In this document: in pieces, positions 18,749 to 43,268 of the stretch
Position numbering within the stretch: the first letter of the stretch is position 1
How the letters are laid out: the number at the start of each line of letters is the position of its first letter
DNA from: Ardenticatenaceae bacterium
GTDB lineage: Bacteria; Chloroflexota; Anaerolineae; Promineifilales; Promineifilaceae
Direction of reading: 5' to 3'
DNA length: 64,000 nucleotides
NCBI GenBank assembly: GCA_030065875.1
Contig: JASJCR010000052.1
Coordinates: 2,347-66,346, forward strand
Notes under the pieces: model-generated
The model's input: only the letters and a program-made list of their open reading frames with translations
The model's database searches: none
Told to the model about the DNA's origin: nothing
Made by a program: the position numbers and the translations under genes

Positions 18749-18894
18749 AAGGAATACGGCTTGATATTGCACATAGGCTGCTGCTTTGATAGGGTTCCTT
18801 CACAAACGCACCACCTAATGTGCTTGGGCCGACGAAAAACGCAGCTAAACCGGCCGTTTGGCAGTAAGAAATCGTAGAAAAACAGAGAGTCGTC

Positions 18895-19503: not shown

Positions 19504-19607
19504 AGTGGCAGATGCCTGGTTGAAAAAAGGAGCTTGTTCCAGGAGACATCTTCGAAGACAGGGGCAGCCGGAAAAATCTCTCCGTGAAAAAATATTGAGG
19601 AACTGAG

Positions 19608-20312
19608 ATGTCAGCAGAGCAAACTAACTATGATGAGGTAGCTGAGGCGTATTTATTAGCCACCAACGAAAAACCATTTACGAAATACTACGAGAGGCCG
19701 TTCATCATTGACAATTTGCCACCATTGGCCGGGAAGTCAATTCTGGACGTCGGTTGTGGAACCGGATTTTACAGCAAATATTGCCTTGAAAATGGAGCCA
19801 CAGTCATTTCGGTCGATGCGAGCACAAAGATGGTCGAGCACACGGTCGAGCTTTGTAACGGGAAGAATGCGGGCTATGTCCATGATATCGCGAAACCTTT
19901 TGACTTCGTAAAATCTGGCTCAATTGACGTAATCATATGTTCTCTTGTCCTTCACTACATCGCCGATTGGACTCAAACGTTGAGCGAGTTTTACAGAACT
20001 CTAAAGTTGGGGGGCAAGTGTCTGATATCAACTCACCATCCAATAATCGACTTCACCCACTTTAACCGTGATTCGTATCACTCAAAGCGACTTGTCGAAG
20101 ACGAGTGGCAAGGGTTTGATCCCCCCATTAAAGTCAAGTATTGGGTGAGACCGCTCAACGAGTACATCCAACCAATGATCGACTCAAAGATGACTCTCGT
20201 ATCGGTAAATGAGCCAGGCCCGATAAAGGATTTGGAAAGCATTGACCCCCGCACGCACGCCAGGTTGTCCACTCGGCCGGCCTTTCTTTTCTTTGTACTG
20301 AAGAGGTCCTGA
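19608..20312 (+). CDS. Class I SAM-dependent methyltransferase
   Basis: 234-aa ORF with motif I ILDVGCGTGFYS and post-I ISVDAS. Confidence 0.85.
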   Translation: MSAEQTNYDEVAEAYLLATNEKPFTKYYERPFIIDNLPPLAGKSILDVGCGTGFYSKYCLENGATVISVDASTKMVEHTVELCNGKNAGYVHDIAKPFDFVKSGSIDVIICSLVLHYIADWTQTLSEFYRTLKLGGKCLISTHHPIIDFTHFNRDSYHSKRLVEDEWQGFDPPIKVKYWVRPLNEYIQPMIDSKMTLVSVNEPGPIKDLESIDPRTHARLSTRPAFLFFVLKRS

Positions 20313-20551
20313 GTGAGCTGAGCGATTGCTCTCTGACGCGACCAACGACATGACATACTCAACAACCAAATGGACCTGGACTGACGGCTGGCTTCTGATG
20401 TCTATCAAAAGGCGGGTTGTTTAAAAGTAGCGAAAAAGGCCTTGATTGGCTGGAAAGTTCGATTCATCCCCAAATTAATGCGAAAACGGTCTCTTTTTCT
20501 ATTGAAGGTTTACAAATCAATATGGATACGAACCATCTATAACAACAAACC

Positions 20552-20620
20552 CGTCATTCCCGCTTTCGCGGGAATCTATTGGATTGCCACCGATGGATCC
20601 CCGCCTACGCGGGGATGACG
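20552..20620. repeat. Inverted pair of REP-like hairpins at the right edge of the AT-rich island
   Basis: CGTCATTCCCGCtttcGCGGGAAT ... ATCCCCGCctacGCGGGGATGACG: two 8-bp-stem hairpins in inverted orientation. Confidence 0.75.
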
Positions 20621-20673
20621 CTGCGGCATGGCTGATTGTGAATAGCGATTCACTTAAAGAAGGAAGCTGAATA

Positions 20674-21147
20674 ATGTCTGAAATTCAAGCGGAACACTTC
20701 ACCAAAGCGCTGCTGATGCTGCTCGATGAGACCTTTGATCAGGTTCACGGCTTTTATCTCGACCGGAATACTTCCCTGTTTGAAACACTGGCCGGGATAA
20801 CGGCCGAGGAGGCGTCGATCCCGGTCGGCGGCCGGTGCGCGACGTTGGCCGCCCAGGTCAAGCACATCGCTTTTTATTTAGATGTGGTTGAAAAAAGCGT
20901 GCGGGACCCCAACTTCCCCCAGGCAGACTGGGGTGAAATTTGGCGCACGGTTAGCAGTGTGACACCCAAAGAATGGCAGGCGCTTCAGGACGAGCTGCGC
21001 GCCAGTTACACAAGCATTCAAACCCTGATCAAAACCACCCCGGCCTGGCCCAGCGACGATGAAATTGGCGGGGCGATGGCGATTTTGGCCCACACCGCCT
21101 ATCATCTGGGCGAGATTCGCCAGGCGTTGTGTATGCTGCAATCCTGA
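20674..21147 (+). CDS. DinB-family protein
   Basis: 157-aa ORF with HIAFYLDV and ILAHTAYHLGEIRQ motifs. GC-rich like the core. Confidence 0.75.
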   Translation: MSEIQAEHFTKALLMLLDETFDQVHGFYLDRNTSLFETLAGITAEEASIPVGGRCATLAAQVKHIAFYLDVVEKSVRDPNFPQADWGEIWRTVSSVTPKEWQALQDELRASYTSIQTLIKTTPAWPSDDEIGGAMAILAHTAYHLGEIRQALCMLQS

Positions 21148-21161
21148 GGATTTGGAGAAAA

Positions 21162-21194
21162 CTCCGCGATCTCAGCGGCCTCCGCGGTGATTTT
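21162..21194. repeat. CTCCGCGGTGA-type short dispersed repeat, copy 1
   Basis: ctccgcgatctcagcggcctccgcggtgatttt. Compare the copy at 22555-22597. Confidence 0.55.
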
Positions 21195-21220
21195 ATTTAG
21201 ATTGACGATCCATCAACTGT

Positions 21221-22270
21221 TTAAATTAAGACGGCCTTCGGCTGCAGATGCTCCTGCAGAAATGCGGTCATCTCCCCGACCGCTTTCTCAAAATAATCTC
21301 CTTCGTAGATGTCAAAATGACCAATCGGGTACGTTATGACCTTCGCTTTAGCGCCCAAAGCCTCGGCCGCTCGCTTGTGCGAATCTGGAGCCGCGAGATT
21401 GTCATTTTCACACGCCAAAAAAAGGACCGGGCACTGTACCTTTTTGGCCGCTTCTACGGCGTCGGGCCCATGCTGCCTGAGGAGCAGGCGGGCACACACT
21501 TCATTTTTGAAGGTTTCTGAATGCTGCACGACCCGCGAATACCCCTCGAAAGCACCGGGAGCAGTTAACATGGCCACGGTTCCCGGTTTGCCGACGATGG
21601 GAAACGTATGGGGTGAGAGACCCAGGCGGGATCGTCCTTTGTCTCGCTGGGCGTGGGGAAGCAGGCGGAGAATGTAACCGATCCCGTCCCGTTTCATGAA
21701 CAGCTCGGTGTCCGCCTGGTGATCAATTGCCCCACATTGGGAGATAACCGCTCCGATCTGCGGGTCTTCAGCGGCGATAATCAGCCCGTACCCCCCGGCC
21801 GCAGACGTGCCCCACAGGGCGATTTTTTCTCCATCAATTTCCTGCCGGCCGCGGGCATAAGCAACCGCCGCCCGCAAATCATCATGCTGCGCCAAAACGT
21901 CGAAAACCTGACGTGGCTCCCCGCCGCTTTCACCAAAATGCCGGTAGTCATAGGTTAGTGCGGCCATCCCCGCGGCGACAAAGCGCAGCGCATATGATTC
22001 GATAACCCCATCTTTGGTTCCGCCAAAGCCGGTGCTGATGATGACGCACGGCACCGGGTGAGAAGCAGCTTCCGGCAGGTAAAGCCAGCCGCGGATTGGA
22101 ATATCACCCACAAAAAATTGTACGTCTCGACGGCAATCTGGTTTGCGTTTTTTGTGATCGACCCGTTTGAACGGCTGTTTAGGAACCTTCAGGACGGGAA
22201 AAAAGATAATCACGATGAGATACAGTAGAACAATCCCAAATGCGAAAAGGACACCCCGCAAAATCTTCAT
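21221..22270 (-). CDS. Alpha/beta hydrolase with N-terminal membrane anchor
   Basis: 349-aa ORF with one N-terminal TM segment, a nucleophile-elbow-like LWGTSAAGG, and C-terminal PIGHFD (catalytic His region). Confidence 0.7.
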   Translation of the reverse strand: MKILRGVLFAFGIVLLYLIVIIFFPVLKVPKQPFKRVDHKKRKPDCRRDVQFFVGDIPIRGWLYLPEAASHPVPCVIISTGFGGTKDGVIESYALRFVAAGMAALTYDYRHFGESGGEPRQVFDVLAQHDDLRAAVAYARGRQEIDGEKIALWGTSAAGGYGLIIAAEDPQIGAVISQCGAIDHQADTELFMKRDGIGYILRLLPHAQRDKGRSRLGLSPHTFPIVGKPGTVAMLTAPGAFEGYSRVVQHSETFKNEVCARLLLRQHGPDAVEAAKKVQCPVLFLACENDNLAAPDSHKRAAEALGAKAKVITYPIGHFDIYEGDYFEKAVGEMTAFLQEHLQPKAVLI

Positions 22271-22645: not shown

Positions 22646-24019
22646 ATGAATCCTCCAATCACATCTGACCTGGTCATGCACCGTATGCCAACCGCAGCCC
22701 GCATGCCGCTAGTCGGCAGTCTACCCTATCTAGTGCGCCGGCCGTTTGACTACCTCCGGCAAGCCCATCAGCAGCATGGCGATATCTTTCGCCTCGATCT
22801 GGGCGTGACCGATGCGGTGATGCTCAATCATCCGCGCCACGTACAGTACATCCTGCGCGACAATGTCCGCAACTTCCGCAAGGGAGGCAATATGTGGACC
22901 TCCATCCGCTCGCTGTTTGGCAACGGCCTGGTCGTCAGCGAAGGCGATTTCTGGCTGCGGCAGCGGCGCATGATGCAGCCTCATTTTCACCGCCGCTATC
23001 TGGTCGGGCTGTTTGACCTGATGCTTTCGGCCATCGACGAGCAGCTGGAAACGTGGCCTGCGGCGGCCGAATCGTTCAACATCAGTGAGGCGTTTAACCA
23101 GATCACCATGCGGGTCATTGTGCGCACCATGTTTGGGACACAGCTGGGTGATCAGGAACTGAATCAGCTCAGCGAGGCGATCACCCACGCCCTGGATTAT
23201 CTCCTGCTTGGCGTGGTGGGTGAGTCCCTGCCGTCCTGGGCCCCGATGCCGGGCAAGCAGCGCTATCTGGCCTCGCGCCAAACGTTCGATGACATCGTAT
23301 ACGACGTGATCGGCCGCAGCCGCAAAGCGTCCAACGACACCAGCCTGTTGGGTATGCTGCTCAACACCGTCGATGCTGAAACCGGCGAGCAGATGACCGA
23401 TCAGCAGGTGCGGGATGAGGTGGCGACCATATTTGTGGCCGGCTACGAGACCACGGCCATCGCCCTGGCGTGGGCGGCCGACTACTTGGCGCGCGATCCG
23501 GAATTACAGGGACGGCTGGTGCGGGAAATCGATACCACCATCGGCCGGGAAGCCCCTGATCTAAACTCCCTGCGATCCCTCGACCTGGTGAAACGCACTT
23601 TTCAGGAGGCGCTGCGCATCCGGCCGAGCGCCTGGTTCCTGCCGCGCCTGACGGTTGAAGATGACGAAATCGACGGTCTGCCGCTGCCGGCCGGTACGCA
23701 GGTGGCCCTGCTCATCAGCCACATTCATCATCATCCGGATCAGTGGGCTGAGCCGCATCGCTTTGACCCAGACCGCTTTTTGCCCGAGGTGGCCAAAACC
23801 CGTCATCCATTTGCTTACGTGCCGTTTGGGGCCGGTCAGCGGCAGTGCATCGGCCGCGATTTTGCTTATATGGAAGGGCAGCTCATCCTGGCCCGACTGC
23901 TGCAGCGCTGGCGGCTGCTGCCCCAGGGTGACCCGGCCCGGCCGCAGCTTTCGAGCACCCTGCGGCCCAAAGGCGGGGTGAAAACCCAGCTGTTGAGCTG
24001 GCCCAGGATCATCGTTTGA
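22646..24019 (+). CDS. Cytochrome P450
   Basis: 457-aa ORF with I-helix AGYETT, EALR (ExxR) and the haem-thiolate loop FGAGQRQCIGRDFA. Confidence 0.92.
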   Translation: MNPPITSDLVMHRMPTAARMPLVGSLPYLVRRPFDYLRQAHQQHGDIFRLDLGVTDAVMLNHPRHVQYILRDNVRNFRKGGNMWTSIRSLFGNGLVVSEGDFWLRQRRMMQPHFHRRYLVGLFDLMLSAIDEQLETWPAAAESFNISEAFNQITMRVIVRTMFGTQLGDQELNQLSEAITHALDYLLLGVVGESLPSWAPMPGKQRYLASRQTFDDIVYDVIGRSRKASNDTSLLGMLLNTVDAETGEQMTDQQVRDEVATIFVAGYETTAIALAWAADYLARDPELQGRLVREIDTTIGREAPDLNSLRSLDLVKRTFQEALRIRPSAWFLPRLTVEDDEIDGLPLPAGTQVALLISHIHHHPDQWAEPHRFDPDRFLPEVAKTRHPFAYVPFGAGQRQCIGRDFAYMEGQLILARLLQRWRLLPQGDPARPQLSSTLRPKGGVKTQLLSWPRIIV

Positions 24020-25625
24020 TCATTGGTATCCACACTTTTTCCAAAGTGAGCCACTCGTAGGCCCCGGCGTCGGGTGGGGGAAATCGGCTGCGGCCGTCAT
24101 AGTTAAACGGACTGCTCTGAGTTGGGTGTCCGGCATTGACCAGGGCGGCCGTTTCCGACCCCGGTCGTAAATCGGTATCGCTCAAAAATCCCGGATCGGC
24201 CGCCTGTGAGTGGCTTCCCCATCCCTGACCCTGCCACGCTGCCAGATTGTTCGCCCCGGCGGCCCAGACGCCGCTGCTGAATTGGCAGATATTGTAATCA
24301 ATGACGTCGTAGCTCCCGGCCGTCGCGTCGAGGCAGTGCCACCCCGAGTCGCTGCCGGTCAGCCGCAGGGCATTGCTGACAATCGTATGTCCGCTGCCGG
24401 CATTGAGCACGATCCCCCGGCCGCTGCTCAGGGCCAGGCTGTTGTTGCGAATGGTGACGTCGGTTGAAACGGCGTCACCGGCACCCGGTGTCTTGTCCGG
24501 AACGGCGATCCCGGCCACGCCAAACGCCTGCTGATGCACCACCACGTTGTTTTCGATGGTACAGCTAATGCAGGATGAGGTGCCAATGGCCACGTTACCC
24601 ACGTTTTCCACCCGATTGCCGCGAATGGTGACGTTGGTAAACGCTTCCGGGGTGCTATAACCGGTTGTAATGGAGATCCCCCAGCACGTTTGGTTCGCCT
24701 GCCCCACGTCTTCATGCACATAATTGCCCTCGATGAGCAGGTCGGTGAGGTACCCGTGGCCGACCAAAGAGGTGCCGCCGCAGCGGCCGGACCCGTCCAG
24801 TGAGGATCGGTACAGCTCATTGTTGCGAATGGTGATGCGGCTGCCCCCGCTGACGTAAATGTTGTGGTCAAATACCGTGCCGCTGCCGTTGCGGTCAAAG
24901 ATGCTGTCTTCGATCAGCAAATCGTTGCCTGATCCCAGAAATCCCTGGGAGAAGCTGTTGGTGACGTCGACATTGCTTACGGTGATGCGATCGTTTTGAC
25001 CATTGCATAACGGGTCACCGGCCGCGCAGGGATTGGCCCCGGCCAGGTGAATGCCGATGGCGAATCCGTCCATACTGACGGTGTCGATCACCACGTCGTT
25101 GACGTCATTAAATAAGAAGAATCCCCAGCCGCCGCCGGAGGTGCATGCCGGGCAGCGCAAATCGAGATTGCGAAAGGCGTAACCGCCGTTAGCCACCGCA
25201 TCTCCTCCATTTGACAGCTCAAAGGCGTGGTCATCGGCCGTGCGGTTTAGAATCGGCCGATTTTCATCCCCCGAGGCCCACGGCGGGGTGTAATCCGCGA
25301 TCAGGCAGGGTTGGGCTGCTGTACAGCTAAAGGTCGACCAGCGGCCGCTGCCGCTTCCCAAATCAAACGATCCGCCCCGACAAAAGCGGATTTCATCTCC
25401 CGCCTGAATGCTGCTGTTGAAGTGGTTCCGGGCTTGGTCATAGGTTTGCCAGGGCGCGGCCGGATCGGTGCCGCTGCTGCCGTTGTTCCCTGGCGTACAC
25501 TCTCCATCAGCCCCATTTTGACAGTCACAAACATAGTAAACCGTCGAGGCCGCCTGGCTGTCGGGCTGAAAGAGCAGCACCAGAGAAATGGCAATCGTTA
25601 AAACTGCAATCCATTTGTATGTCAT
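24009..25625 (-). CDS. Secreted right-handed parallel beta-helix repeat protein
   Basis: 538-aa ORF with a signal peptide (MTYKWIAVLTIAISLVLLF). Repeated N/G-rich turns (IRNN, IENN, IRGN) indicate a pectate-lyase-like fold. It ends in VWIPMIKR. Confidence 0.75.
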   Translation of the reverse strand: MTYKWIAVLTIAISLVLLFQPDSQAASTVYYVCDCQNGADGECTPGNNGSSGTDPAAPWQTYDQARNHFNSSIQAGDEIRFCRGGSFDLGSGSGRWSTFSCTAAQPCLIADYTPPWASGDENRPILNRTADDHAFELSNGGDAVANGGYAFRNLDLRCPACTSGGGWGFFLFNDVNDVVIDTVSMDGFAIGIHLAGANPCAAGDPLCNGQNDRITVSNVDVTNSFSQGFLGSGNDLLIEDSIFDRNGSGTVFDHNIYVSGGSRITIRNNELYRSSLDGSGRCGGTSLVGHGYLTDLLIEGNYVHEDVGQANQTCWGISITTGYSTPEAFTNVTIRGNRVENVGNVAIGTSSCISCTIENNVVVHQQAFGVAGIAVPDKTPGAGDAVSTDVTIRNNSLALSSGRGIVLNAGSGHTIVSNALRLTGSDSGWHCLDATAGSYDVIDYNICQFSSGVWAAGANNLAAWQGQGWGSHSQAADPGFLSDTDLRPGSETAALVNAGHPTQSSPFNYDGRSRFPPPDAGAYEWLTLEKVWIPMIKR

Positions 25626-32328: not shown

Positions 32329-32449
32329 ATCGCGAATCGTTATAGTTAAGCTCGATTCAAGGGTGGAAAGGTTTGAGTTTCTGATCAAGCAGAGAGTGGT
32401 GGATCATCCTTGCGCCGTCAGGCCGGAGCATGCTGTGTGACATAAATTC

Positions 32450-32482
32450 AGATTGGACCAATCTCCAAGATTGGTCCAATCT
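32450..32482. promoter_or_regulatory. Two adjacent 15-nt near-palindromes (orphan operator-like site)
   Basis: AGATTGGACCAATCT-cca-AGATTGGTCCAATCT. The two 15-mers are exact reverse complements of each other. Confidence 0.4.
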
Positions 32483-32948
32483 ATGAGTACTTTGACCGTT
32501 TAAGAACAGAATTTTAATCTGTCGGCCCTTGGCCCCCTTCTGGGAGGAATTCCCCCCAATTTCCACCTGTTTTATGTTATCCTATAAGATCACCACGGTA
32601 ACTTTTTTTGGCGTAGAAATTGCCGTGTGGATGACATATTTCAACAAACGAGGTTTGACGATTTAGCCGTAAAGAATTAATTGTCGCTGCTTGTTTGCCG
32701 GAATATCGATTCAGCTGGCGTTAAATCAATTACGGTGCTAATAACGCTGTGATTACTCTGCTTTTTCTCAGCGATTTTGTTTAGCTTTGCAGTGAATTTG
32801 GCAAGATCAAGAAATTCCAACCGGGTCAAATAGAGAATTGAGGCAGCTGCTTTTAAGCAAAGAGGACCGGCCGCGCACCGTTCATCTGGGAGAGCCAGGA
32901 AACCCCATGACAACCTGCTCAGATTTCACAATCTGAAAAGGAGTCCCG

Positions 32949-34247
32949 ATGTCAAAAAACAGAATATTTTCCGCCTTTTTGCTCCTCGCGCTCGTGATGT
33001 GGATTAGCAGCTTGGGGCTCTCTCCAACTGTCAAGGCCGTCGCTCCCTCCGAGAAGGGTGATATTGCACAACTCAATGTTCCGCTGGCCCCGCCCATGGA
33101 CAATTTTTTGGATATTTGGGTTGGTGATGGGGTGGACAACCTGGCCTCGGCCGTGGCCTACAACAGCCGGCACGATGAATTTCTGGTGGTATGGGAAAAC
33201 GACCGCGGGGCTACGCGTGACATTTACGCTCGACGTGTGGCCAGCAGTGGGGATATCTTAAGCTGGTTTACCATTGTTTCAAATGCCGGTCGCTGGAATT
33301 ACCTGCCAGACGTTTCTTACAATCCCATCCAGGACGAGTATCTGGTTGTTTACACTTACCAGGTCACGGCAAGCGATTATGATATCTGGGCCCGACGGGT
33401 CAAATGGGACGGGAGCTGGATGAGTCCCGAAATTCCGATCAACCAGGATCCTGCTAAACAATGGTATCCGGCCGTAGCCTACAACAGCCGGGATAACGAA
33501 TACCTCGTGGTTTATGAGAATTACTGGGCGGGCGGTTTGCGCGATATTGCCGCCCAGCGGGTGGCCGGTAACGGCAGTTTACTCAGCTGGCGCAACATCG
33601 CTACCGGGCCAGGAACGACGCGCCGCCTGCCGGACGCGGCATACAACGAGGTTCGCAACGAGTATCTGATTGCATACACATATGATTTCCCCACCAATGG
33701 CGACATTCGCGGCAAAATCACGTCGTTCAACCTGGGTCTGCTCGGTGCCGAAATCGACATCGTAAACAACACCAATCATCAGGATGATGTTGCCCTGACG
33801 GCCGGCCCTAATGAATACCTGGCGATCTGGGAAGATGGGCCGATGCTCTCCGACAGAACTATTTACGGCCGCCGCCTGACCGCCACCGGCGTATTGCAGT
33901 CGTATATTCAGATCGCCGCTCATACAGGAGAATCATGTGTGGAACCGGCTGTCGCCTACAGCGACGTTTACGGCTACATGATCAGCTGGCGGCACATTTC
34001 AGCCATGGGGGATTGGGACGTGTTCGGCCGCCAGATTAAGGCCGGTCACAACCTACCCGCGGACGTTGAATTTCCCATCGACATCGGATCTGATCAGCAA
34101 AAATCACCGGTCCTGGCCTGCTCGCCTCTCGGGTTCTGCCTCCTAGTTGAAGAGGACAACTATTCACCGGCCGGACCGATTGACTATGAAATTCGCGGCC
34201 GGTTAATCCAACCCAACCAGCTGCACCTGCCGATGGTCCGGAAGTGA
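32949..34247 (+). CDS. Secreted protein with seven ~50-aa repeats (propeller-like), unknown family
   Basis: 432-aa ORF with a signal peptide. The repeat core recurs seven times: AVAYNSRHDEFLVVWEND, DVSYNPIQDEYLVVYTYQ, AVAYNSRDNEYLVVYENY, DAAYNEVRNEYLIAYTYD, LTAGPNEYLAIWEDG, AVAYSDVYGYMISWRH and LACSPLGFCLLVEED. It ends in LHLPMVRK. Confidence 0.75.
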   Translation: MSKNRIFSAFLLLALVMWISSLGLSPTVKAVAPSEKGDIAQLNVPLAPPMDNFLDIWVGDGVDNLASAVAYNSRHDEFLVVWENDRGATRDIYARRVASSGDILSWFTIVSNAGRWNYLPDVSYNPIQDEYLVVYTYQVTASDYDIWARRVKWDGSWMSPEIPINQDPAKQWYPAVAYNSRDNEYLVVYENYWAGGLRDIAAQRVAGNGSLLSWRNIATGPGTTRRLPDAAYNEVRNEYLIAYTYDFPTNGDIRGKITSFNLGLLGAEIDIVNNTNHQDDVALTAGPNEYLAIWEDGPMLSDRTIYGRRLTATGVLQSYIQIAAHTGESCVEPAVAYSDVYGYMISWRHISAMGDWDVFGRQIKAGHNLPADVEFPIDIGSDQQKSPVLACSPLGFCLLVEEDNYSPAGPIDYEIRGRLIQPNQLHLPMVRK

Positions 34248-34253
34248 CACATT

Positions 34254-34310
34254 CGCCTTCGATAGGCTCAGGCTCCAGTATTGGCGGTGGCTGAGCTTGT
34301 CGAAGCCATG
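34254..34310. repeat. GGTGGCTGAGCTTGTC-family REP-like element, copy B
   Basis: cgccttcgataggctcaggctccagtattggcggtggctgagcttgtcgaagccatg. Confidence 0.65.
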
Positions 34311-34358
34311 AGCCTCTTGTTTTGAATCATTTAAAAATAAGGCGTTGCAGGCAAACTG

Positions 34359-36335
34359 ATGTCATTAACAAAATCTTACCGGCCGCAGATTGATCGACAA
34401 CCGTCGGCGATCACGATTGGGATTGTGGCTTTTTGTGCGGCGCTGCTGGTGACCCTGCTGCTGCCACAAATGATGGGGAGGGCGTCACGGGCGATCCACG
34501 CCACGCCATTTGAGGGCGCGGCGCTCGATAACCGCAGCGGTATGATCGTCTTGAGTGATGACGGCCGCTATCTGGTCGTCGTCAATCCCGATTCCAACAC
34601 CCTTTCCATTGTAGATCCGGCCGCCCGGCAGCTGCTGGCCGAAATTCCCGTGGGGGTCGACCCGCGCAGCGCAGCCATCACCCGTGATGGCGCAACCGCT
34701 TACGCTGCCAATCAGGGGTCGGACGACATTTCGGTCATCGATGTGGAGAACAGACAACTGCTGGCGACTGTGCCTGTGGGGGACCGGCCGGTCAACGTGA
34801 CCCTCACTCCGGACGGCCGCTACCTGGCCGTAGCGGAACTGGGTGACGACACCGTACGCTTTCTTGATACGTCTACTCTGGCCACCCTGTCCGTTCAGAC
34901 CGTGCCCGACCGGCCGCACGGCCTGAGCTTCACCCCGGACGGTCGCTCGCTGCTTGTGACCCATTTGCTCAGCGGAAGCGTGACCGTTTTGCCGGCCCGC
35001 CCTTATGCTCAATTTCTGCCGCTTGTTGGCCAACAGGGAGCTGTTTTCAGCACGGCGAAACCCTTAAATCAGTCTTCAGGTGCAGCACAAAGCGACCGGC
35101 AAACGATTGCCACCTGGCCTAACGTCGCTCCCGCCCCGGCCGTCGTTATCAACGCGGCCGGCACCCGCGCCTACCTGCCCCAAACGATGGCCAACGGGCT
35201 GGGGCTCAACGTCCAGTTTGACACCACCGTCTTCCCCAAAGTGTCGGTGCTCAATTTGCAGACCGGCACCCATGAGACAAGCGAGCACATCCCCCTGCCG
35301 GAAACCGATCAGCCGGTTGGTCTGCCGTGGGATGTGGCTTTGACTAAAAATGACGCCGAATTATGGGTGGTCAATGCCGCCAGCAATGACGTTTCGATTA
35401 TCAATCTTTCCAATCCGGCTCAGCCGGTCCGAACCGCTCATATTCAGGCCAGAGATAATCCACGGGGGATCGCTTTCAGCCCGGACGGTCAGACCGCCTA
35501 CATCAACAACGTGCTGGCCGGGATTGTCAGCGTGATCGACACCAGCACGTACACGGTCACAACCGAAATTCCCGTGACGACGATCCCTCTGCCGCCGCTG
35601 CTGCTGACCGGCAAGCGGCTGTTCCACAGCAGCGCCACCCCCGAACTGGCCCAGGCGCGCTGGGTTGCCTGCAATACCTGCCATGTCGAAGGGGAGCACG
35701 ACGGCCGGACGTGGCAGCTGCAGTTCACCGGCAGCCCGTCAGCTGTGGCCGGCATTCCCACAATCAGGCGCAATACCACTAGCCTGCTGGGCATGATTGA
35801 AACTTATCCCCTGCGCTGGTCGGCCGAATGGGATGAATCGGCCGACAGCGAGTTTAGCATTCGCTTTGAGCAGTTTGGCGACGGTCTTATCAACGGCGAG
35901 ATGCACCCGACCCTTGGTTTGCCCAACCAGGGGCGCTCCCTCGAATTAGACAGCCTGGCCGCGTATATCGACAGCTTGGCTGTCCCGCAGCGCAGCCACA
36001 CGCTGACTGCAGCCGAGCTGCGGGGCAAAGTACTGTTTGAATCGGCTCAAACCGGCTGCGCCGTCTGTCATCCCCCACCGCTTTACACCAACCTGAGCCA
36101 ATACGACGTGGGCACGGCCGATGGTCCGGGTGAATGGTTTGGCCCGCTGATCGACACCCCTACGCTGCGCTTCTTGTATGACAGCGCTCCCTATTTGCAC
36201 GACGGCAGCGCAGCCACGCTGCATGATGTATTGACGGTCGCCAATCCCCAGGACGAGCACGGGGTGACTTCCCATCTCACGGAAGTGGAATTGGCCGACC
36301 TGGCCGCATTTTTACGGGCGCTGCCTCATGAATGA
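34359..36335 (+). CDS. YVTN-type beta-propeller fused to a di-haem cytochrome c peroxidase (CCP/MauG-like) domain
   Basis: 658-aa ORF with an N-terminal TM anchor. It has repeated D..S..(L/I)SV(I/V)D blades (NTLSIVDPA, DDISVIDVE, NDVSIINLS, GIVSVIDTS), two CxxCH motifs (CNTCH, CAVCH) and a CCP-like PYLHDGSAATLHDV. Confidence 0.85.
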   Translation: MSLTKSYRPQIDRQPSAITIGIVAFCAALLVTLLLPQMMGRASRAIHATPFEGAALDNRSGMIVLSDDGRYLVVVNPDSNTLSIVDPAARQLLAEIPVGVDPRSAAITRDGATAYAANQGSDDISVIDVENRQLLATVPVGDRPVNVTLTPDGRYLAVAELGDDTVRFLDTSTLATLSVQTVPDRPHGLSFTPDGRSLLVTHLLSGSVTVLPARPYAQFLPLVGQQGAVFSTAKPLNQSSGAAQSDRQTIATWPNVAPAPAVVINAAGTRAYLPQTMANGLGLNVQFDTTVFPKVSVLNLQTGTHETSEHIPLPETDQPVGLPWDVALTKNDAELWVVNAASNDVSIINLSNPAQPVRTAHIQARDNPRGIAFSPDGQTAYINNVLAGIVSVIDTSTYTVTTEIPVTTIPLPPLLLTGKRLFHSSATPELAQARWVACNTCHVEGEHDGRTWQLQFTGSPSAVAGIPTIRRNTTSLLGMIETYPLRWSAEWDESADSEFSIRFEQFGDGLINGEMHPTLGLPNQGRSLELDSLAAYIDSLAVPQRSHTLTAAELRGKVLFESAQTGCAVCHPPPLYTNLSQYDVGTADGPGEWFGPLIDTPTLRFLYDSAPYLHDGSAATLHDVLTVANPQDEHGVTSHLTEVELADLAAFLRALPHE

Positions 36336-36350
36336 GTAACGGAGATCCTC

Positions 36351-39300
36351 ATGAACAAAAAAGACCCTTCTTCGATAAAACTATTGCTGCCGCTGGCCCT
36401 GGCCGCGCTTCTAACCCTGCTGGTTTTTTTGGCCGACCGGCCGTTTTTCCAGTCAACCAACGCTTTTGAAGAGCTTGTGGTTATACATTCCCTTGCTTCA
36501 CCTCAAGTCACCTACCCCACCACGCCGCCGGACGCCAGCAAAATTACCGTGGGTGACCCTGATGCTGATGGATACGCAACCGTGACGGGGGGAAACGGGG
36601 CTGTACCGGCCGCTGCTGAGGTGGTGGTGATTAACCTCAATGCCCACACAGTGATGACCGATACCGCCGACGCCAACGGGGCGTTTACGGCCGAACTGTA
36701 TGCGCCCCCCGGTTCCTCGCTGCTCATCAAATATGAAATCGGGCCGGACAATGCAATTGAAAGATTCTGGAATGACGCCGTCATAAAAATTTCCGACGCC
36801 TCCACCGAAAATCTCAATCCGCTACCTGGAACGATGATTTACGTGGCGGCCCCACCCCCGGGAGACGGCACGTCACAGCCGTTTCACGCCGTCGGCAACT
36901 GGTGGAGCGAATCACCCAAAGGGTGGGCCGGTTGGCACGTGAGCGGCACGGTGCAGGCACCACCTGGCGTGCCGCCCGGATTGGCCGCCGAGCCGGGAGA
37001 GCCGGTGACGATAACCGCCAAGGTGTTCCTGACTTCCCCGGCCATCAACTGCACGGGCTCGCCGACTTACACGGCCGCGGCCAACATCGGCCTGCGCTAT
37101 ATGTTTGATGATGAAGGTCGGGCAGAACCGTGGGATATCTGGTTTAACGCCCATCTATTTACCCCCACCGGTTTGCCGATTGAGCACGAAGCGCATGGTG
37201 AAAAGCGACACGTGGTGGGAACACCGGTTACGTCATTTGTCTGTCAGAGCTCACAAACGGTTGCCAGCGATTTGGTGGTCACCTTTAACATACCGGGAGA
37301 TTTCCCGGAGGGGATTTACCGGCCGGAAATTGAGCTGTTTAGCGATGTGCCGCTTGGATCAACCGTTCCGCAGGCTGTAGTCTGGTATCGCACCGGGGAA
37401 GTTGGCCTGCTGCCGCTTTTGCGCGTTGGCGATCCGGCACCGCCGCGCATTCCGTGGACCCTGATGGGGGACGAGCTGCTCAACGGCCATCGCGGGCTGC
37501 AGGCGCGTGAAGACGCCGGATCGTTCCTGATGACGACGCGAGTGGTTTTCCCGCCGCATCAGGTTGTGGTGCCGCGGCTGGATGCTCGCAGCGGTTTGCC
37601 CATCCCCTACCGGCTGGAACCGGGTTCAAACTGGCTGTCCGGAACGGAGCGTCGCCAGCCGCCGCCAACCCATATCCCGCTGGCGCTCCCCTCGGGGGAG
37701 CTAATCGTCGAAATTCTCAAGCCGGACGGCAAGGTCGATCAGCTTGGCCCGGCCGTTATCCTGCAGCCATCGATACGCACGCCGACCACGCCGGGTGGGG
37801 CTCCGATTGGCGAGGCGTCCGGCCATATTGGAGACCTTTTTCACCTGACGACGATGAATCCGTTGTTTGATTACTCTTTTGAGATGGACGGCCCCCACAC
37901 GATTTTTGTCTTTGGGGAAGTGGAAGACATTTACGGCAACGTGTATGGGTTAAACAATGCCTATGACGTGATGGTGGCTCGCGTGCTCGATCTCGACCCG
38001 GCCCAGCTTCCGACCACCCCATATATGATGGGGGATGCGTTTGCGCCCGGCCTGCGTCTGTTCCCACCCGTTCCGGCCGATGTGACGGTGAATCTGGTGC
38101 ACATGCCGTTTTCCGATCCGACGCTGGCCATCACCCAAACCGTCACCGGTCAGGCCAACCGCTTTGGGTATTTCCAGCCGCCGCCCGGAACCGAGATTCG
38201 ATTTGCTTCGCCGGGTGAATTTCGGGTCGATATTAGCGCCGAGTTTGAGACTCCGGAAGGGGAGCTGTGGGCCGGCTATATGACCTGGGGAAGTGTTGTC
38301 GAAGGCCCTGGGGCGCTAATTGAGGCCCACGGCCGCCGCGGGATGAGCTATAAAAGCAACACGATTGACGACATGCCCGCCTGGTTTATCCATCAGCAGC
38401 TGCCGCCGGACAAGGTCGACGTCGATACCTACTATCCGTACTTTAGCGGCGACATTCATTGGGGAAATGAGACGCCCGACAGCAACGACCCCGGTGATTC
38501 AATTCATACGGTCATTACGCTCAAAGACCTGACCGGGGTCAGCGAAACGATTTACAACGTGATGCGCACCCATTTCCCGCGGGCGCGTAACGTGTTCCGC
38601 TGGCCGCCCATCGACACCAGCGCGGTTGGTCTGGAGAAACGGCTCGATATCGGTGAAGCGCCGCTGTTTATCACCACCCAGAGCGGGATCGATCCGGCCG
38701 TCGAGCCAGCCGATATTGATTTGTGGGGGTATTACTATGGCTCATCGCAGCGGCCGGACGTGCGGGTGCGCGAGATTATTGCCGAAGACGGGATGGGCAC
38801 CGCCTACTGGCGCTTTAACGACACGTACGGTTATCAAATTGGGGAGCCGGCCGATGGGGATCAGCCCGGCGACCTCAAGTGGGAGTTCGGCGGCGCGGTG
38901 TTCCGGGTGCCGGACCAGGCCATCAACGAATACGCCATCTACAGCTCGCTGTGGGTGCTGCTGCCGCATAACGACCCGGTTGGTGCGCGCATCACCCCGC
39001 CGTTTCAGGATGCCACCGGAGCCAGCATCAACGGCGGCCCGATCATGGAGCTGTTGGGGGAAGAGATCGACATGCTCTTCCTGCCCAAGGGGGTCAGACC
39101 TGGTGACGTGCTGGAGGTTGGCGATACGATTTCGTTTTCCGGCCACGTTGGTCCACCGCTGGACAGCCTGGTCGACGTGACGATTACCTCGCCTACCGGC
39201 GTGCAGTTCGGCCGCATCTGGCGGGCCAACAAAATCGGCTGGGTTTACGATCCGACATTTGATTTCCCGGCCAATGAGGCGGGGCGATGGACGGTGGATG

Positions 39301-39818
39301 TGTTTGTCGAGCACGACCGGCCGTACGTGGGCAACGGGGTTATTCCTCAGAGCCACAATACCGGCACCGTGCTGGGCACCGGCGGCCGCTATGAATTTTA
39401 CGTCGTGGCGCCGGATACCCCGCAGATGATGATTACCACTCCTCTCCCGGGTTATCTCCCCTGGCCGGAGGATGTGATTGAGCCGATCGAGATTCATGGA
39501 TTTGCCCCGCCGGGTACAACCGCTGTGCACTACACCATTCACGACAAGGGGGTGGTGATGGGTCAGGGAACTCTGGTGCCCGATGCGGGCGGCCGTTTCA
39601 CGATGATCTATGACGCCACCCTACTGCACGATGATTTCCCCATGCTCAGTCTAACCGATCGTGAGGGGCGCTGGGCGGGATTGGCCGACGAAGTAGCTAT
39701 TCACTTTTTAGCTGTGGGCAGCGGCCCATCGCGAGCTACTACCGTCACGTTGATCGGAGAAGAGGTGTTTGTGGGGCAGAGTGCCCGCACTTTGTTTTTA
39801 CCGGTTGTTGTGCGGTGA
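36351..39818 (+). CDS. Large secreted protein of unknown function
   Basis: 1155-aa uninterrupted ORF with a signal/anchor (IKLLLPLALAALLTLLVFLA). It has no CxxCH motif and no motif I recognise. It starts 13 nt after the previous stop and ends in LFLPVVVR. Confidence 0.8.
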   Translation: MNKKDPSSIKLLLPLALAALLTLLVFLADRPFFQSTNAFEELVVIHSLASPQVTYPTTPPDASKITVGDPDADGYATVTGGNGAVPAAAEVVVINLNAHTVMTDTADANGAFTAELYAPPGSSLLIKYEIGPDNAIERFWNDAVIKISDASTENLNPLPGTMIYVAAPPPGDGTSQPFHAVGNWWSESPKGWAGWHVSGTVQAPPGVPPGLAAEPGEPVTITAKVFLTSPAINCTGSPTYTAAANIGLRYMFDDEGRAEPWDIWFNAHLFTPTGLPIEHEAHGEKRHVVGTPVTSFVCQSSQTVASDLVVTFNIPGDFPEGIYRPEIELFSDVPLGSTVPQAVVWYRTGEVGLLPLLRVGDPAPPRIPWTLMGDELLNGHRGLQAREDAGSFLMTTRVVFPPHQVVVPRLDARSGLPIPYRLEPGSNWLSGTERRQPPPTHIPLALPSGELIVEILKPDGKVDQLGPAVILQPSIRTPTTPGGAPIGEASGHIGDLFHLTTMNPLFDYSFEMDGPHTIFVFGEVEDIYGNVYGLNNAYDVMVARVLDLDPAQLPTTPYMMGDAFAPGLRLFPPVPADVTVNLVHMPFSDPTLAITQTVTGQANRFGYFQPPPGTEIRFASPGEFRVDISAEFETPEGELWAGYMTWGSVVEGPGALIEAHGRRGMSYKSNTIDDMPAWFIHQQLPPDKVDVDTYYPYFSGDIHWGNETPDSNDPGDSIHTVITLKDLTGVSETIYNVMRTHFPRARNVFRWPPIDTSAVGLEKRLDIGEAPLFITTQSGIDPAVEPADIDLWGYYYGSSQRPDVRVREIIAEDGMGTAYWRFNDTYGYQIGEPADGDQPGDLKWEFGGAVFRVPDQAINEYAIYSSLWVLLPHNDPVGARITPPFQDATGASINGGPIMELLGEEIDMLFLPKGVRPGDVLEVGDTISFSGHVGPPLDSLVDVTITSPTGVQFGRIWRANKIGWVYDPTFDFPANEAGRWTVDVFVEHDRPYVGNGVIPQSHNTGTVLGTGGRYEFYVVAPDTPQMMITTPLPGYLPWPEDVIEPIEIHGFAPPGTTAVHYTIHDKGVVMGQGTLVPDAGGRFTMIYDATLLHDDFPMLSLTDREGRWAGLADEVAIHFLAVGSGPSRATTVTLIGEEVFVGQSARTLFLPVVVR

Positions 39819-39930
39819 TATTGGGCGGATGGGTAAGAGGTTTATTCAGTTTGGTCTACCAAGCACCCCTGCCCGATTCGGGTTCAGAAGCGGATAGGTA
39901 AAATTTCCGATTCCAAACAGCTCAATAAGC

Positions 39931-40018
39931 TCCCTTCCCCGCATCGGGGAGGGGCTGGGGGAGGGGTGAGCTGACGGAAAGACCCACCCCCTAACCCCCT
40001 CCCGATTCGGGAGGGGGA
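39931..40018. repeat. G/C-run hairpin element inside the cluster spacer
   Basis: Two hairpins, tCCCTTCCCCgcatcGGGGAGGGG and CCCCCTCCCgattcGGGAGGGGG, lie between the 1155-aa gene and the multihaem gene. Confidence 0.65.
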
Positions 40019-40092
40019 ATTTGATGGACTGAAGAAGAGCAACATCGGCAATTTGAATTACCTGACTGCTCCAGAACCATTTTGGAGAAAAA

Positions 40093-41706
40093 ATGTTTAG
40101 CAAAAATAACCACCGCTTGCTGTTAATCGTGTGTGTGTTGATGGCCGCGACAGCCGGTGTGGCGCTGCTGCTTGCCGGCCGGGATCTCATTGCGGCCGGG
40201 GCCGGCACGGTGTCCGGCATTGTGGTTGACGAGAGAGGCGATTCGGCCGCCGGGGCCACCGTGCGCGTGCGGGCCACCGAACATGCGGCGCATACTGATG
40301 CCAACGGCCGTTTTACCTTAGGTGGCCTGACCGAAGGGACAGAAATTGAGGTCACCGCCTGGCGCAGCGGCACCTATATCGCCTCTCTTCACGTCACGCC
40401 GACCGTGAGCGGGGTGACGCTAACCTTGCGACCGCATCACACCGTGGATCACCCCGAGTACGTGTGGACCTCACCGATCAGCAGCACGTCGGCCAAGGCG
40501 TGCGGAAACTGCCATCCCATGATTGTGTCCCAGTGGGAAAACAATGCCCACGGCACGGCCGTCAGCAATCGGCGCTTTTTTAGCCTTTACAACGGCACCA
40601 ACCTCAGCGGCACGGCCAAAATTGCGCCGGGGTATGTGGATGATTTCCCGCTCACGGCCGGGAACTGCGCCAGCTGCCACGCGCCGGGCTGGGGGATCGA
40701 TGGGTATCTGACGACCGATATGAATACAGCGCGCGACGTCATCACCGCCGGCATTCACTGCGACTACTGTCATAAGGTGGGAGATGTCTATCTAAATCCG
40801 GCCGATGGTGCGGTTTATCCCAACGTGCCGGGCGTGGCCGGTCAGAAAATGCTCCGTCCGCCAGCCGGGGACGATATTTTTTTAGGGCCGTATGACGATA
40901 TTCCCGACCCCGATACCTTTGCCCCCGTTTACCAGCAGAGTGGGTACTGCGCTACCTGCCATCAATTTAGCTTCTGGGGCACGCCAATTTACGAATCTTA
41001 CGGGGAATGGCTGGCCAGTCCCTATGTGGCGGCCGGGGTAACCTGCCAGGATTGTCACATGCCGCCCAGCGGTGACATTTACTTTGCTCTACCGGAGCAG
41101 GGAGGGCTGCCGCACCCGCCGGAAGTGATCCCTTCACATCTGCAGCTGGGTGCGGCGGATGCGGATTTTTTGCGGGAGGCGATCACCATGACCCTGTCGG
41201 CCCGGCAGGTTGGCCGGGTAATTGAGGCCACCGTCAGCGTGACGAATACCGGTGGCGGCCATCATTATCCAACCGATCATCCCGGTCGGCATCTGATTTT
41301 AACGGTGACGGCTGCCGATGGTGGGGGGGCACCTCTGGCGCAGCAGGCCGGGTCGACCGTGCCCGACTGGGGTGGAGCTCAGGCCGGGCGGCCGGGTACG
41401 GTTTACGCCAAAATTTTGGCCGACGCGGTGACCGGTGAAGCGCCGGTCGTCAGCTATTGGAAACAAACCTATATTGCCAGCGATAACCGTCTGCCTGCTT
41501 TAACCGGAGATACATCCGTTTATACCTTTGCGATGCCGGACAGCGGCACGGCTGCCCTGACGGCCGAGCTGCGTTTCCGGCGAGCGTTTCAGCCGCTATT
41601 GGATAGTAGAGGATGGCCGGATTCAGACATTGTTCTGGCTCAGGCGGATACGGCCGTTGATGTGCAGCCGGTATGGCTAATTTATTTACCTCGTATAGGC
41701 AGGTGA
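40093..41706 (+). CDS. Secreted penta-haem c-type cytochrome with N-terminal carboxypeptidase-regulatory-like domain
   Basis: 537-aa ORF with a signal peptide. GTVSGIVVDERGDSAAGATVRV...TDANGRFTLGGL is CarboxypepD_reg-like. Five CxxCH motifs are present (CGNCH, CASCH, CDYCH, CATCH, CQDCH). It ends in IYLPRIGR. Confidence 0.85.
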   Translation: MFSKNNHRLLLIVCVLMAATAGVALLLAGRDLIAAGAGTVSGIVVDERGDSAAGATVRVRATEHAAHTDANGRFTLGGLTEGTEIEVTAWRSGTYIASLHVTPTVSGVTLTLRPHHTVDHPEYVWTSPISSTSAKACGNCHPMIVSQWENNAHGTAVSNRRFFSLYNGTNLSGTAKIAPGYVDDFPLTAGNCASCHAPGWGIDGYLTTDMNTARDVITAGIHCDYCHKVGDVYLNPADGAVYPNVPGVAGQKMLRPPAGDDIFLGPYDDIPDPDTFAPVYQQSGYCATCHQFSFWGTPIYESYGEWLASPYVAAGVTCQDCHMPPSGDIYFALPEQGGLPHPPEVIPSHLQLGAADADFLREAITMTLSARQVGRVIEATVSVTNTGGGHHYPTDHPGRHLILTVTAADGGGAPLAQQAGSTVPDWGGAQAGRPGTVYAKILADAVTGEAPVVSYWKQTYIASDNRLPALTGDTSVYTFAMPDSGTAALTAELRFRRAFQPLLDSRGWPDSDIVLAQADTAVDVQPVWLIYLPRIGR

Positions 41707-42389: not shown

Positions 42390-43268
42390 GTGTTGGGAGC
42401 AACTGAGGTAGCTGTGTCGAAGAAATACAAAAATAAAGTGAATCAAAAACCAGGCTGGGGCACCATGATCTTTGCCTTGGCACTTATTGCTCTGGGTTTA
42501 TTTTCAAGCAAAGTATTGTTTGAAGGGCGTTATTTTCAGGGGGGAACGGGCTTATTTCGCCTTGCAGAAGGAGCGGCACCTGAAACTGGATCTTTTCGGT
42601 CTGGTTCAGATGGTGGAATAGTAATTGAATTTGGGAATTTAGATTTTTATTCTGTGTGGATCAAGGATGGAGAGGTTATTGGTGGCCATGCTCAGGGAAG
42701 TGCCTATTGGGAAATTTTGGGAGGCGTCTTTGATGGTCAAAATCTTCAGTTGATTATGGTTACAGACGATCAAGACAATTGCAACGAATGGTGGTCCCAT
42801 AATTTTTTTGTAGAGTCGTCACAGGTTACTCTCCGAACTAGCGTCAATAAATGCGGGGAAGCAATAGTTGAGCAAGATGTCGTCTACCCACGAACCGGGC
42901 TGGTAAGGCCCATACAGATGAAGTATATACCTAGCGTATTTGCTCCTAACTCTGTCGCGCCTACAATGATTCCTGCTGAAGAAACGCTCATCTTTGGAGA
43001 TTCAGAATCCTATTATGTTAGGATTGTGGATGAAGAGGTCGTGAGTGGGTACGCACAGGGAAGTGCAGATTGGGAAATATTGAGTGGTGTCTATGATGGG
43101 ATAAATTTGCAAATTATTATGACTACGCCGGATCGCAGTAATTGTTACGAGTGGTGGTCACATAATTTTATTGTTGAAGATTCACAGGTTACTTTGAGAA
43201 CAAGCGTCAATAAATGTGGAGAAGCGATCGTTGATCGTAATGTCGTCTATCCACGCACAGATAATTAG
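42390..43268 (+). CDS. Membrane-anchored protein with two tandem ~84-aa repeats, unknown family
   Basis: 292-aa ORF in an AT-richer patch. Residues 87-170 and 208-291 are clearly homologous (HAQGSAYWEILGGVFDGQNLQLIM...CNEWWSHNFFVESSQVTLRTSVNKCGEAIV versus YAQGSADWEILSGVYDGINLQIIM...CYEWWSHNFIVEDSQVTLRTSVNKCGEAIV). The true start may be the GTG at about 42414. Confidence 0.65.
   Translation: MLGATEVAVSKKYKNKVNQKPGWGTMIFALALIALGLFSSKVLFEGRYFQGGTGLFRLAEGAAPETGSFRSGSDGGIVIEFGNLDFYSVWIKDGEVIGGHAQGSAYWEILGGVFDGQNLQLIMVTDDQDNCNEWWSHNFFVESSQVTLRTSVNKCGEAIVEQDVVYPRTGLVRPIQMKYIPSVFAPNSVAPTMIPAEETLIFGDSESYYVRIVDEEVVSGYAQGSADWEILSGVYDGINLQIIMTTPDRSNCYEWWSHNFIVEDSQVTLRTSVNKCGEAIVDRNVVYPRTDN

Follow-up and report, generated by a model that had tools for sequence, protein, structure and literature searches.

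Does a row of four genes for exported proteins in an uncultured member of the Chloroflexota encode a single redox system and, if so, which of the genes belong to it and what might it do? The row lies in a 64,000-nucleotide (nt) stretch of DNA, hereafter the window, from an Ardenticatenaceae metagenome-assembled genome (MAG; GCA_030065875.1, contig JASJCR010000052.1), and its genes are called A, B, C and D here (positions of all features are given in Table 1). The original prediction, made from the sequence of the window, described four plus-strand genes with spacers of 111, 15 and 274 nt, coding for a seven-repeat protein, a YVTN beta-propeller fused to a di-haem module, an orphan protein and a five-haem cytochrome, and proposed that the four together form an extracytoplasmic redox machine whose composition could not be mapped to a described system. 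The open reading frame (ORF) coordinates agree with this layout, and the seven haem sites are present as CxxCH motifs, two in B and five in D. Each of the four proteins has a hydrophobic stretch at its start, a signal or an anchor, in keeping with the earlier statement that all are exported or anchored; export of B and D is expected also because c-type haem is attached to them, and export of C because of its natural fusions to D and to B. The absence of a regulator or maturation gene inside the four-gene cluster was likewise confirmed. In the present study, we found that the conserved module is B-C-D, probably an extracytoplasmic haem enzyme of the type of cytochrome c peroxidase (CCP) and the beta-gamma part of hydrazine synthase (HZS), with a dedicated multihaem donor, and that its distinguishing part is the undescribed C family. 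This module is previously unreported, our literature search having found no paper that describes the B-C-D cluster or the C family, and no feature of it contradicts current understanding.

Thirty-one related loci were compared, 29 from GTDB species representatives and two from long metagenome contigs (labels such as L018 are ours); the genomes were scanned by exact peptide patterns, so that the numbers of carriers are under-counts. B, C and D occur together in 20 of the 31 loci, which come from distinct GTDB species or metagenomes, and in all but one of these 20 they stand in the order B-C-D on one strand, the order in L031 being D-B-C. Eight further loci are cut by contig ends and are compatible with the B-C-D order, and one is uninformative. 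The two exceptions are L018, where an A-like gene replaces D, and L021, which has a partial C alone. When all flanking ORFs were clustered all against all, the only recurring families were B (22 loci), C (30 loci) and D (25 loci), and the next commonest, a generic response regulator, was found at six loci. No conserved flanking gene beyond B, C and D was found, either at these loci or at those of the sister clade described below. The functional unit is the three genes B-C-D, and the four-gene set is only a physical neighbourhood. Synteny with other genomes, on which the original prediction had staked its case, is thus strong for B-C-D and lacking for A, and the proposal of an extracytoplasmic redox machine is supported in part, for a conserved, co-oriented module of haem proteins to which A does not belong.

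A itself contains six clear repeats of about 53 residues, each ending in D[IV][YWF][AG]RR[VIL], and a degenerate seventh, in agreement with the seven repeats counted before, and is likely to be a beta-propeller. It is a member of a large Anaerolineae family (at least 685 matches) with no Pfam match, and its homologues occupy unrelated neighbourhoods; in MAG GCA_016929095.1, for example, the A homologue (L035) and the B-C-D genes (L025) are on separate contigs. A four-gene operon including A was rejected, because A is not beside B-C-D elsewhere, except for weak A-like genes in L014 and L018, which are about what chance would give for so large a family. The lower GC content of A (0.55, versus 0.60 for B-D and 0.52 for the window) and a hairpin past its stop codon are weak but consistent signs that A is outside the B-C-D unit. 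The hairpin has a 14-bp stem, begins just past the stop codon and is followed about 13 nt further by a U-rich stretch (fold z-score -2.8), and could act as a terminator between A and B.

B consists of an N-terminal membrane anchor, a seven-bladed YVTN-type propeller (approximately residues 55 to 410) and a di-haem domain that is predicted to be of the CCP/MauG superfamily (approximately residues 415 to 658). Searches of Pfam and NCBIfam support this assignment, which the original prediction had also made: the repeats match TIGR02276 at 6.7e-40, and the C-terminal third has weak CCP_MauG and RoxA-like matches. In the comparison of the B family profile with the PDB, a generic YVTN S-layer propeller ranked above HzsB (1.8e-32) and HzsC (1.3e-24), and these were followed by MbnH (3.7e-9) and CCP (about 1e-8). 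B is accordingly annotated here as a predicted fused HZS beta-gamma-like protein. The two haem motifs, CNTCH and CAVCH, are both invariant in 23 B orthologues and in the sister clade, so that they are not chance occurrences; D448-G-R-x-W452, N472-T473, W487, W491, the PY.HDG motif with H614, and H634 are also kept in both clades. By analogy with the CCP/HZS-gamma fold, the first haem is presumed to occupy the catalytic, low-potential position, and the second is presumed to be the one at which electrons enter. The C-terminal block of B aligns best with HzsC (...DMHGRTSHL...), and its candidate distal ligand region appears to be like that of HzsC (..EHGVTSHL) and not like the Met loop of CCP. 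The cysteines of B are Cys26 in the anchor and the four of the haem motifs only, and most of the sister-clade B' proteins have four cysteines in total.

C was regarded as an orphan in the original prediction, and our searches agree. It matched no Pfam or NCBIfam family, weak immunoglobulin (Ig)-type domains appearing only at E<=0.1, and its family profile found no sequence match in the PDB at E<=1, including the HZS alpha subunit (5c2v_A). Apart from fused domains (FG-GAP, propeller/CCP and CarboxypepD_reg), Pfam scans of distant family members revealed nothing. The C family is large and undescribed: a profile search that covered 1.84 billion cluster representatives yielded 971 proteins at E<=1e-3, counted as representatives at 50% identity, and 414 at E<=1e-30. 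About 200 close homologues have 55-69% identity to C, and nearly all are from MAGs and metagenomes of Anaerolineae or other Chloroflexota. This identity is maintained class-wide and is as high as that of the enzyme B, which argues against C being a passive spacer.

The AlphaFold2 model of C, built with 50 homologues and confident overall, is almost entirely beta, with a mean predicted local distance difference test score (pLDDT) of 85.6 and a predicted template-modelling score (pTM) of 0.86, and the latter value argues for a compact body and not a stalk. When the model was searched against the PDB by Foldseek, alpha-2-macroglobulin, complement C3/C5, CD109 and TEP1 were the top matches (E 2.7e-15 to 1e-10, probability 1.0), with a template-modelling (TM) score of only about 0.1 and about 8% identity. 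The model thus depicts C as a compact array of macroglobulin/Ig-like sandwiches that would not be a member of the alpha-2-macroglobulin family. C contains no CxxCH motif, no CxEQ thioester and no helical thioester domain, and only two cysteines. Its most conserved segment (residues 812-848) is acidic and rich in aromatic residues; column identity is 0.93 over residues 811-840, the core QIG....GD.PGD...F.FGG is also present in the sister-clade consensus, and the Trp and Tyr residues Y819, W820, Y826, Y828 and W844 are invariant. This same segment is modelled with a pLDDT of 51-63, which would fit a loop that becomes ordered only when a partner or ligand is bound, and it is a candidate partner- or metal-binding site.

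In D, Pfam detected a CarboxypepD_reg domain (1.3e-9; Ig-like, residues 39-105) and Cytochrome_C554 (1.6e-8), so that the earlier description of a penta-haem cytochrome behind a carboxypeptidase-regulatory-like domain was correct. The five motifs CGNCH, CASCH, CDYCH, CATCH and CQDCH are at residues 137, 192, 223, 286 and 318, and the Ig-like stem carries a conserved GHH.PTD.PGRH motif, the protein ending in the tail YLPRIGR. The best PDB match is 5ze8, cytochrome c552 of Thermochromatium tepidum (residues 127-502, 4.4e-9), followed by c554, and the best NCBIfam match is ExtKL (38.5 bits versus a cut-off of 250). The only cysteines of D are those of the haem motifs and the anchor, and the site that corresponds to the catalytic selenocysteine (Sec) of the MccSep-type polysulfide reductase is variable (H, F, Y, Q or S); the simplest reading is therefore that D is an electron carrier. 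An assignment of D as a MccSep-type polysulfide reductase was rejected, since the catalytic Sec/Cys and the Cys haem ligand are missing.

The CxxCH motifs of haems 2-5 of D are invariant across orthologues, and the motif of haem 1 varies. In the window and about ten other loci it reads CxxCH; six loci have CxxCK instead, the form known from NrfA, and another six have CxxCM (the variant loci are L004, L006, L013, L014, L016, L017, L019, L020, L022, L024, L025 and L032). Such a His/Lys/Met switch of the proximal ligand is unusual, and it hints that haem 1 may be specially tuned or catalytic.

Gene fusions and a duplication also tie the three genes together. In P0055 (1780 residues), C is joined straight to D, and the tail of C and the anchor of D are gone; in P0359 (1818 residues), a C domain is followed by a propeller and then a CCP_MauG domain, that is, C+B. 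In P0248 and P0250, the C domain is preceded by CarboxypepD_reg and an FG-GAP propeller; the gene for P0248 nevertheless has B and D as its neighbours. A tandem arrangement B-C-B'-C'-D is present in L019 (positions 6990-21621), which indicates that B and C duplicate as a pair. Furthermore, a sister branch, also in the Chloroflexota, has a protein C' that is homologous to C over 1015 columns with 33% identity (hhalign probability 100). In this sister clade (loci L039-L057; for example, L039, 1233-7618, and L041, 7001-13395), the order is reversed to C'-B', the two genes are adjacent in 15 loci, and there is no D-like gene in the loci. Because C'-B' is kept without D, the C·B pair is the invariant core, and D is an accessory of the Anaerolineae clade.

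Taken together, these observations lead us to a reading that we hold with about even confidence: B-C-D would encode a three-subunit, membrane-anchored, extracytoplasmic redox enzyme with a C·B core, to which D feeds electrons and which acts on a small oxidant. B, C and D would be anchored on the outer face of the cytoplasmic membrane. C would bind B and most likely offer a surface for binding or channelling the substrate, or a second site. D would be the dedicated electron wire from the membrane or from general carriers to the C-terminal haem of B, from which electrons would pass to the N-terminal, catalytic haem, a direction of flow that we infer; this haem would then reduce a small oxidant, the favoured ones being peroxide or a nitrogen oxide (NO or hydroxylamine). 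H2O2 is the substrate of cytochrome c peroxidases, and for HZS gamma a reduction of NO to hydroxylamine has been proposed; by analogy with these, the only relatives that have been characterised, an enzyme for peroxide or another small oxidant is plausible.

Several points weigh against this reading. The choice of substrate is a guess by analogy with CCP and HZS gamma, and the physical complex of the three proteins is suggested only by linkage and fusions. The CCP_MauG match of B in Pfam (21.9 bits) is below the gathering threshold (25.6 bits). C has no recognisable active site, and its four His residues that are invariant in the Anaerolineae clade (clade 1) are not all present in the sister consensus; a separate model of residues 640-1000 of C, made with 16 sequences, had a pLDDT of only 37.9. 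There is no quinol dehydrogenase in the cluster, and because the sister clade lacks D, a dedicated donor is not essential to the core chemistry. Finally, the carriers found are all uncultured MAGs.

An alternative, which we consider unlikely but the most serious of those weighed, is that the C·B pair handles metals, by peroxide-coupled oxidation of Fe(II) or Mn(II) or by capture of metal for uptake, with C binding the metal. Di-haem peroxidase-like proteins sit with imelysins in Fur-regulated iron-uptake operons, which gives a precedent (PMC3143127). In the sister clade, a DtxR/IdeR-type regulator (Fe_dep_repress, Fe_dep_repr_C and FeoA domains) is directly downstream of B' and co-oriented with it in seven of the 15 distinct loci, starting about 50-130 nt past B', and in clade 1 one locus, L002, has such a regulator 8 kb downstream. 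The acidity of the most conserved loop of C (GEPADGDQPGD) and the DHOR and DUF1513 matches of B point the same way, although these matches are weak and far below threshold. However, the window has no such regulator, nor do 30 of the 31 clade-1 loci, and no metal transporter, imelysin or EfeU-like gene is linked to the module. A search upstream of C' for IdeR/DtxR, Fur and MntR operators and for shared k-mers gave nothing convincing, only a promoter-like TATACT context.

MauG and MbnH each act on a protein encoded next door, and B appears to belong to the superfamily of these enzymes. B might likewise be a maturase that oxidises aromatic residues of C to a protein-derived cofactor or cross-link, in which case C would be the real catalyst or binder. 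The inseparability and co-duplication of B and C, the sister clade without a dedicated cytochrome, and the loop of C that is rich in invariant Trp and Tyr and modelled as unstructured would all suit such a role. We nevertheless find it somewhat less probable than metal handling, for B is far nearer to HZS gamma (1e-24) than to MbnH or MauG (4e-9), its score with the MauG model TIGR03791 is 30 bits versus a cut-off of 444, and its fused propeller has no counterpart in MauG or MbnH. The C+B fusion P0359 and the five-haem partner also suit a stable complex better than a transient maturase.

Within the framework of the favoured C·B enzyme, one bolder version deserves mention, although we give it only an outside chance. 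C could be the second, haem-free subunit of an enzyme with two tunnel-coupled sites on an HZS beta-gamma chassis, in which the catalytic haem of B would make a reactive intermediate that is passed to the acidic, aromatic loop of C for a second reaction. If this is true, it would be extracytoplasmic chemistry that was previously unknown and is widespread in the Chloroflexota, and HZS beta-gamma would be a reusable front end paired with unrelated partners, which bears on the origin of HZS.

The functions offered in the original prediction included extracellular electron transfer, and this turned out to be the least likely among them. D and B would form a relay across a monoderm-like envelope to minerals or partners, and C would be an envelope-spanning scaffold. 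The seven haems are all extracytoplasmic and anchored, and the cultured relative Ardenticatena maritima respires an electrode or Fe(III) by means of surface c-type cytochromes (PMC5808234). However, there are just two haems in the core, and D is missing from the sister clade; C, without any haem of its own, is predicted to form a compact body (pTM 0.86) and not a long stalk; a propeller with a CCP-like fold is the fold of an enzyme, not of a wire; and no porin or further cytochrome recurs in the neighbourhood. D does match OmcA/MtrC and DmsE, but weakly (24 bits versus a cut-off of 209, and 14 bits versus 192), and we regard the conduit as very improbable. That these Chloroflexota have a true hydrazine synthase, or form N-N bonds by a cryptic route of the anammox type, is effectively excluded: HZS beta and gamma are the best solved relatives of B and the beta-gamma gene comes first and the large partner second, as in hzsBCA, but there is no alpha homologue (C has neither CxxCH, nor an HZS_alpha Pfam match, nor a PDB sequence match), B reaches 134 bits with hydrazine_BC versus a cut-off of 1250, no third Cys is available for the haem link made by gamma-Cys165, and conserved Trp residues are found where non-anammox homologues have Trp (PMC12758564).

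A short motif at the C-termini of several proteins of the window forms a separate subject. The tail has the form [YFLW]-[LI]-P-x-[IVL]-x-[RK], with zero to few residues before the stop codon, and the family consensus is YLPLVLR. It ends A, C and D, as well as one ORF on the opposite strand. At related loci, it is present at the C-terminus of 35 of 320 ORFs, versus 0.27% of internal windows; it occurs on unrelated proteins with N-terminal signals, in many ORFs of L002-L032, and has disappeared from the C+D fusion. The tail matches no NCBIfam or Pfam model, and no paper found by the literature search describes it. It may be a sorting or anchoring signal of the Chloroflexota. Proteins with a VIT or VIT/VWA domain were observed beside sorting-type membrane proteases on two contigs that carry the module: in L002 (442-6110, minus strand) the neighbour is the exosortase EpsH, and an FG-GAP protein is close by, and in L037 (78-2851) it is a rhomboid. 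A connection of such pairs with the module or with the tail motif is possible.

The spacer between C and D, at 274 nt, contains GC-rich palindromes (CCCTGCCCGATTCGGG, CCCCGCATCGGGGAGGGG and CCCCCTCCCGATTCGGGAGGGGG) about 65 nt apart. The core pattern of these palindromes occurs six times in the window, versus 0.23 expected, and all but one of the occurrences are in this spacer, the RNA fold of which has a z-score of -4.6. In other genomes the C-D spacer is mostly short, and the genes are closely spaced or overlapping in, for example, L002 and L010. The palindromes may be an insertion like the repetitive extragenic palindromic (REP) elements, or an intercistronic element for processing or stability.

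The genes around the row code for a MarR regulator, TspO, an alpha/beta hydrolase, a DUF1304 protein and an ABC/FtsX transporter; these are unrelated and are not conserved elsewhere. In the deposited annotation, A and C are the hypothetical proteins QNJ45_16675 and QNJ45_16685. No Rfam family was found in the window. A terminator scan flagged a 16-bp near-perfect palindrome (TAGATTGGACCAATCT...AGATTGGTCCAATCT) in the stretch of 620 nt that separates the hydrolase gene from A. Downstream of the module, an ORF for 292 residues has a GC content of 0.43 and a third-codon-position GC content (GC3) of 0.375, no Pfam match, and an internal repeat seen in tblastn; it may be foreign DNA. As for the carriers of the module, a few were binned as Thermotogae (L019, L032) or Bipolaricaulia (L029), and these may be binning errors or cases of lateral transfer.

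Table 1. Positions in the window of the four genes and of the features discussed in the text (aa, amino acids)
Feature	Position	Strand	Description
Gene A	32949-34247	+	432 aa; about seven repeats, exported; neighbour outside the conserved module
Gene B	34359-36335	+	658 aa; anchor, YVTN-type propeller, di-haem domain
Gene C	36351-39818	+	1155 aa; N-terminal anchor, predicted all-beta array; undescribed family
Gene D	40093-41706	+	537 aa; anchor, CarboxypepD_reg, five-haem cap, Ig-like stem, tail
B haem motif 1, CNTCH	35670-35684	+	aa 438-442; invariant in both clades
B haem motif 2, CAVCH	36057-36071	+	aa 567-571; followed by PY.HDG (H614) and H634
C most conserved segment, EDGMGTAYWRFNDTYGYQIGEPADGDQPGDLKWEFGG	38784-38894	+	aa 812-848; acidic, aromatic loop
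D haem motif 1	40501-40515		CxxCH in the window; variable among loci
Tail HLPMVRK	34224-34244	+	C-terminus of A
Tail FLPVVVR	39795-39815	+	C-terminus of C
Tail YLPRIGR	41683-41703	+	C-terminus of D
Tail WIPMIKR	ORF 24009-25625	-	C-terminus of the ORF
C-D spacer	39819-40092	+	274 nt; hairpins centred at 39872-39882, 39938-39948 and 40001-40011
Hairpin past A	34258-34304		Possible terminator
Palindrome upstream of A	32449-32483	-	Flagged by terminator scan
ORF downstream of the module	42390-43268		292 aa; possibly foreign DNA

The C family, a large group of proteins so far deposited as nothing more than hypothetical, gains from the module a genomic setting and a role that can be tested, and this in a phylum, the Chloroflexota, that is plentiful in sediments, aquifers, hot springs and wastewater reactors. 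If the complex reduces peroxide, NO or hydroxylamine, or handles iron, it would be an unrecognised extracytoplasmic activity in a major uncultured lineage. The YLPxxxR tail on C, D, A and other exported proteins may, in addition, represent an undescribed sorting signal. The question of the origin of HZS is also extended, since a beta-gamma-like protein is here locked to a partner other than alpha, in a phylum unreported in the 2025 survey discussed below.

How does the module compare with known systems? Its composition was at first thought impossible to map, and this is still true of C, which is undescribed; B, in contrast, is HZS beta-gamma-like by its profile, and D has the layout of MccSep and cytochrome c552. 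Conduits of the Mtr, Pcc or OmcA type require a deca-haem chain with a porin, or wall-spanning cytochromes, and B-C-D has neither. In Efe/imelysin iron-uptake clusters, a peroxidase is accompanied by imelysin/EfeO and often by the permease EfeU, under control by iron; at the module, no imelysin or permease recurs in the flanks, and a DtxR-type regulator is all that is linked, in the sister clade only. Like alpha-2-macroglobulin, C3, CD109 and the TEP proteins, C is modelled as a long chain of macroglobulin-type sandwiches in a compact body. In those proteins a CxEQ thioester lies in an alpha-helical domain, and there is a bait region; C has neither the thioester nor such a domain, its sequence does not match the family, and, with a TM score of about 0.1, there is no common global arrangement, and for these reasons an assignment of C as an alpha-2-macroglobulin was rejected.

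ExtKL/MccSep of Geobacter is a five-haem polysulfide reductase in which a helical haem cap is set on an Ig-like stem, with Sec in a loop of the stem and a Cys ligand on haem 2 (PMC13510729). D likewise has a cap with five CxxCH motifs and then an Ig-like stem, as in MccSep and c552, and its GHH.PTD.PGRH loop is at the place of the Sec loop HAGHSIPDGUPTPNR; it differs from MccSep in having neither Sec nor Cys at the catalytic position and no haem-ligating Cys. An N-terminal anchor, the CarboxypepD_reg domain and the C-terminal tail are additions found in D alone. With CCP, MauG and MbnH (PF03150), B shares a pair of CxxCH motifs separated by about 125 residues, an RN(T/S)-type motif that follows haem 1, a conserved Trp between the haems and PY.HDG after haem 2, but its sequence similarity to them is weaker than that to HZS gamma, and the fused propeller, the membrane anchor and the obligatory giant partner C set it apart.

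The closest comparison is with HZS (5c2v from Kuenenia, and the fused beta-gamma protein of Scalindua). As in the latter, a single chain holds a seven-bladed YVTN-type propeller and, after it, a di-haem domain like that of CCP; B has the two invariant CxxCH motifs and matches both HzsB and HzsC, and its gene adjoins that of a large partner. However, the partner is not HZS alpha with its haems alpha-I and alpha-II, since C is haem-free and macroglobulin-like in its model, and HZS alpha is absent from its top 50 Foldseek matches. B has no equivalent of the third covalent haem link made by gamma-Cys165, and it is below the NCBIfam cut-offs for the beta (110.5 versus 560 bits) and gamma (64.7 versus 625 bits) models as for hydrazine_BC (134.3 bits). 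With the alpha subunit and gamma-Cys165 missing and scores about ten-fold under the cut-offs, B-C-D was rejected as a true hydrazine synthase.

Hagglund et al. (2025) described HZS-like clusters that occur in Planctomycetota, Desulfobacterota and a small number of further phyla, and mentioned Chloroflexota neither in the survey nor in its supplements (PMC12758564). Besides a homologue of alpha and an FG-GAP/CRTAC1 protein, these clusters encode beta and gamma in fused form, often with c554 haem domains, and by the authors' conclusion the catalytic residues have not been kept (PMC12758564). The Chloroflexota module and the HZS-like clusters have in common the beta-gamma chassis, an association with c554-type haem proteins and, in some cases, an FG-GAP propeller. 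Whereas c554 and FG-GAP are fused to or adjoin the proteins of the HZS-like clusters, in the module the c554/c552-like protein, D, stands by itself and an FG-GAP propeller forms part of some members of the C family, and the place of the alpha subunit is taken by the unrelated C.

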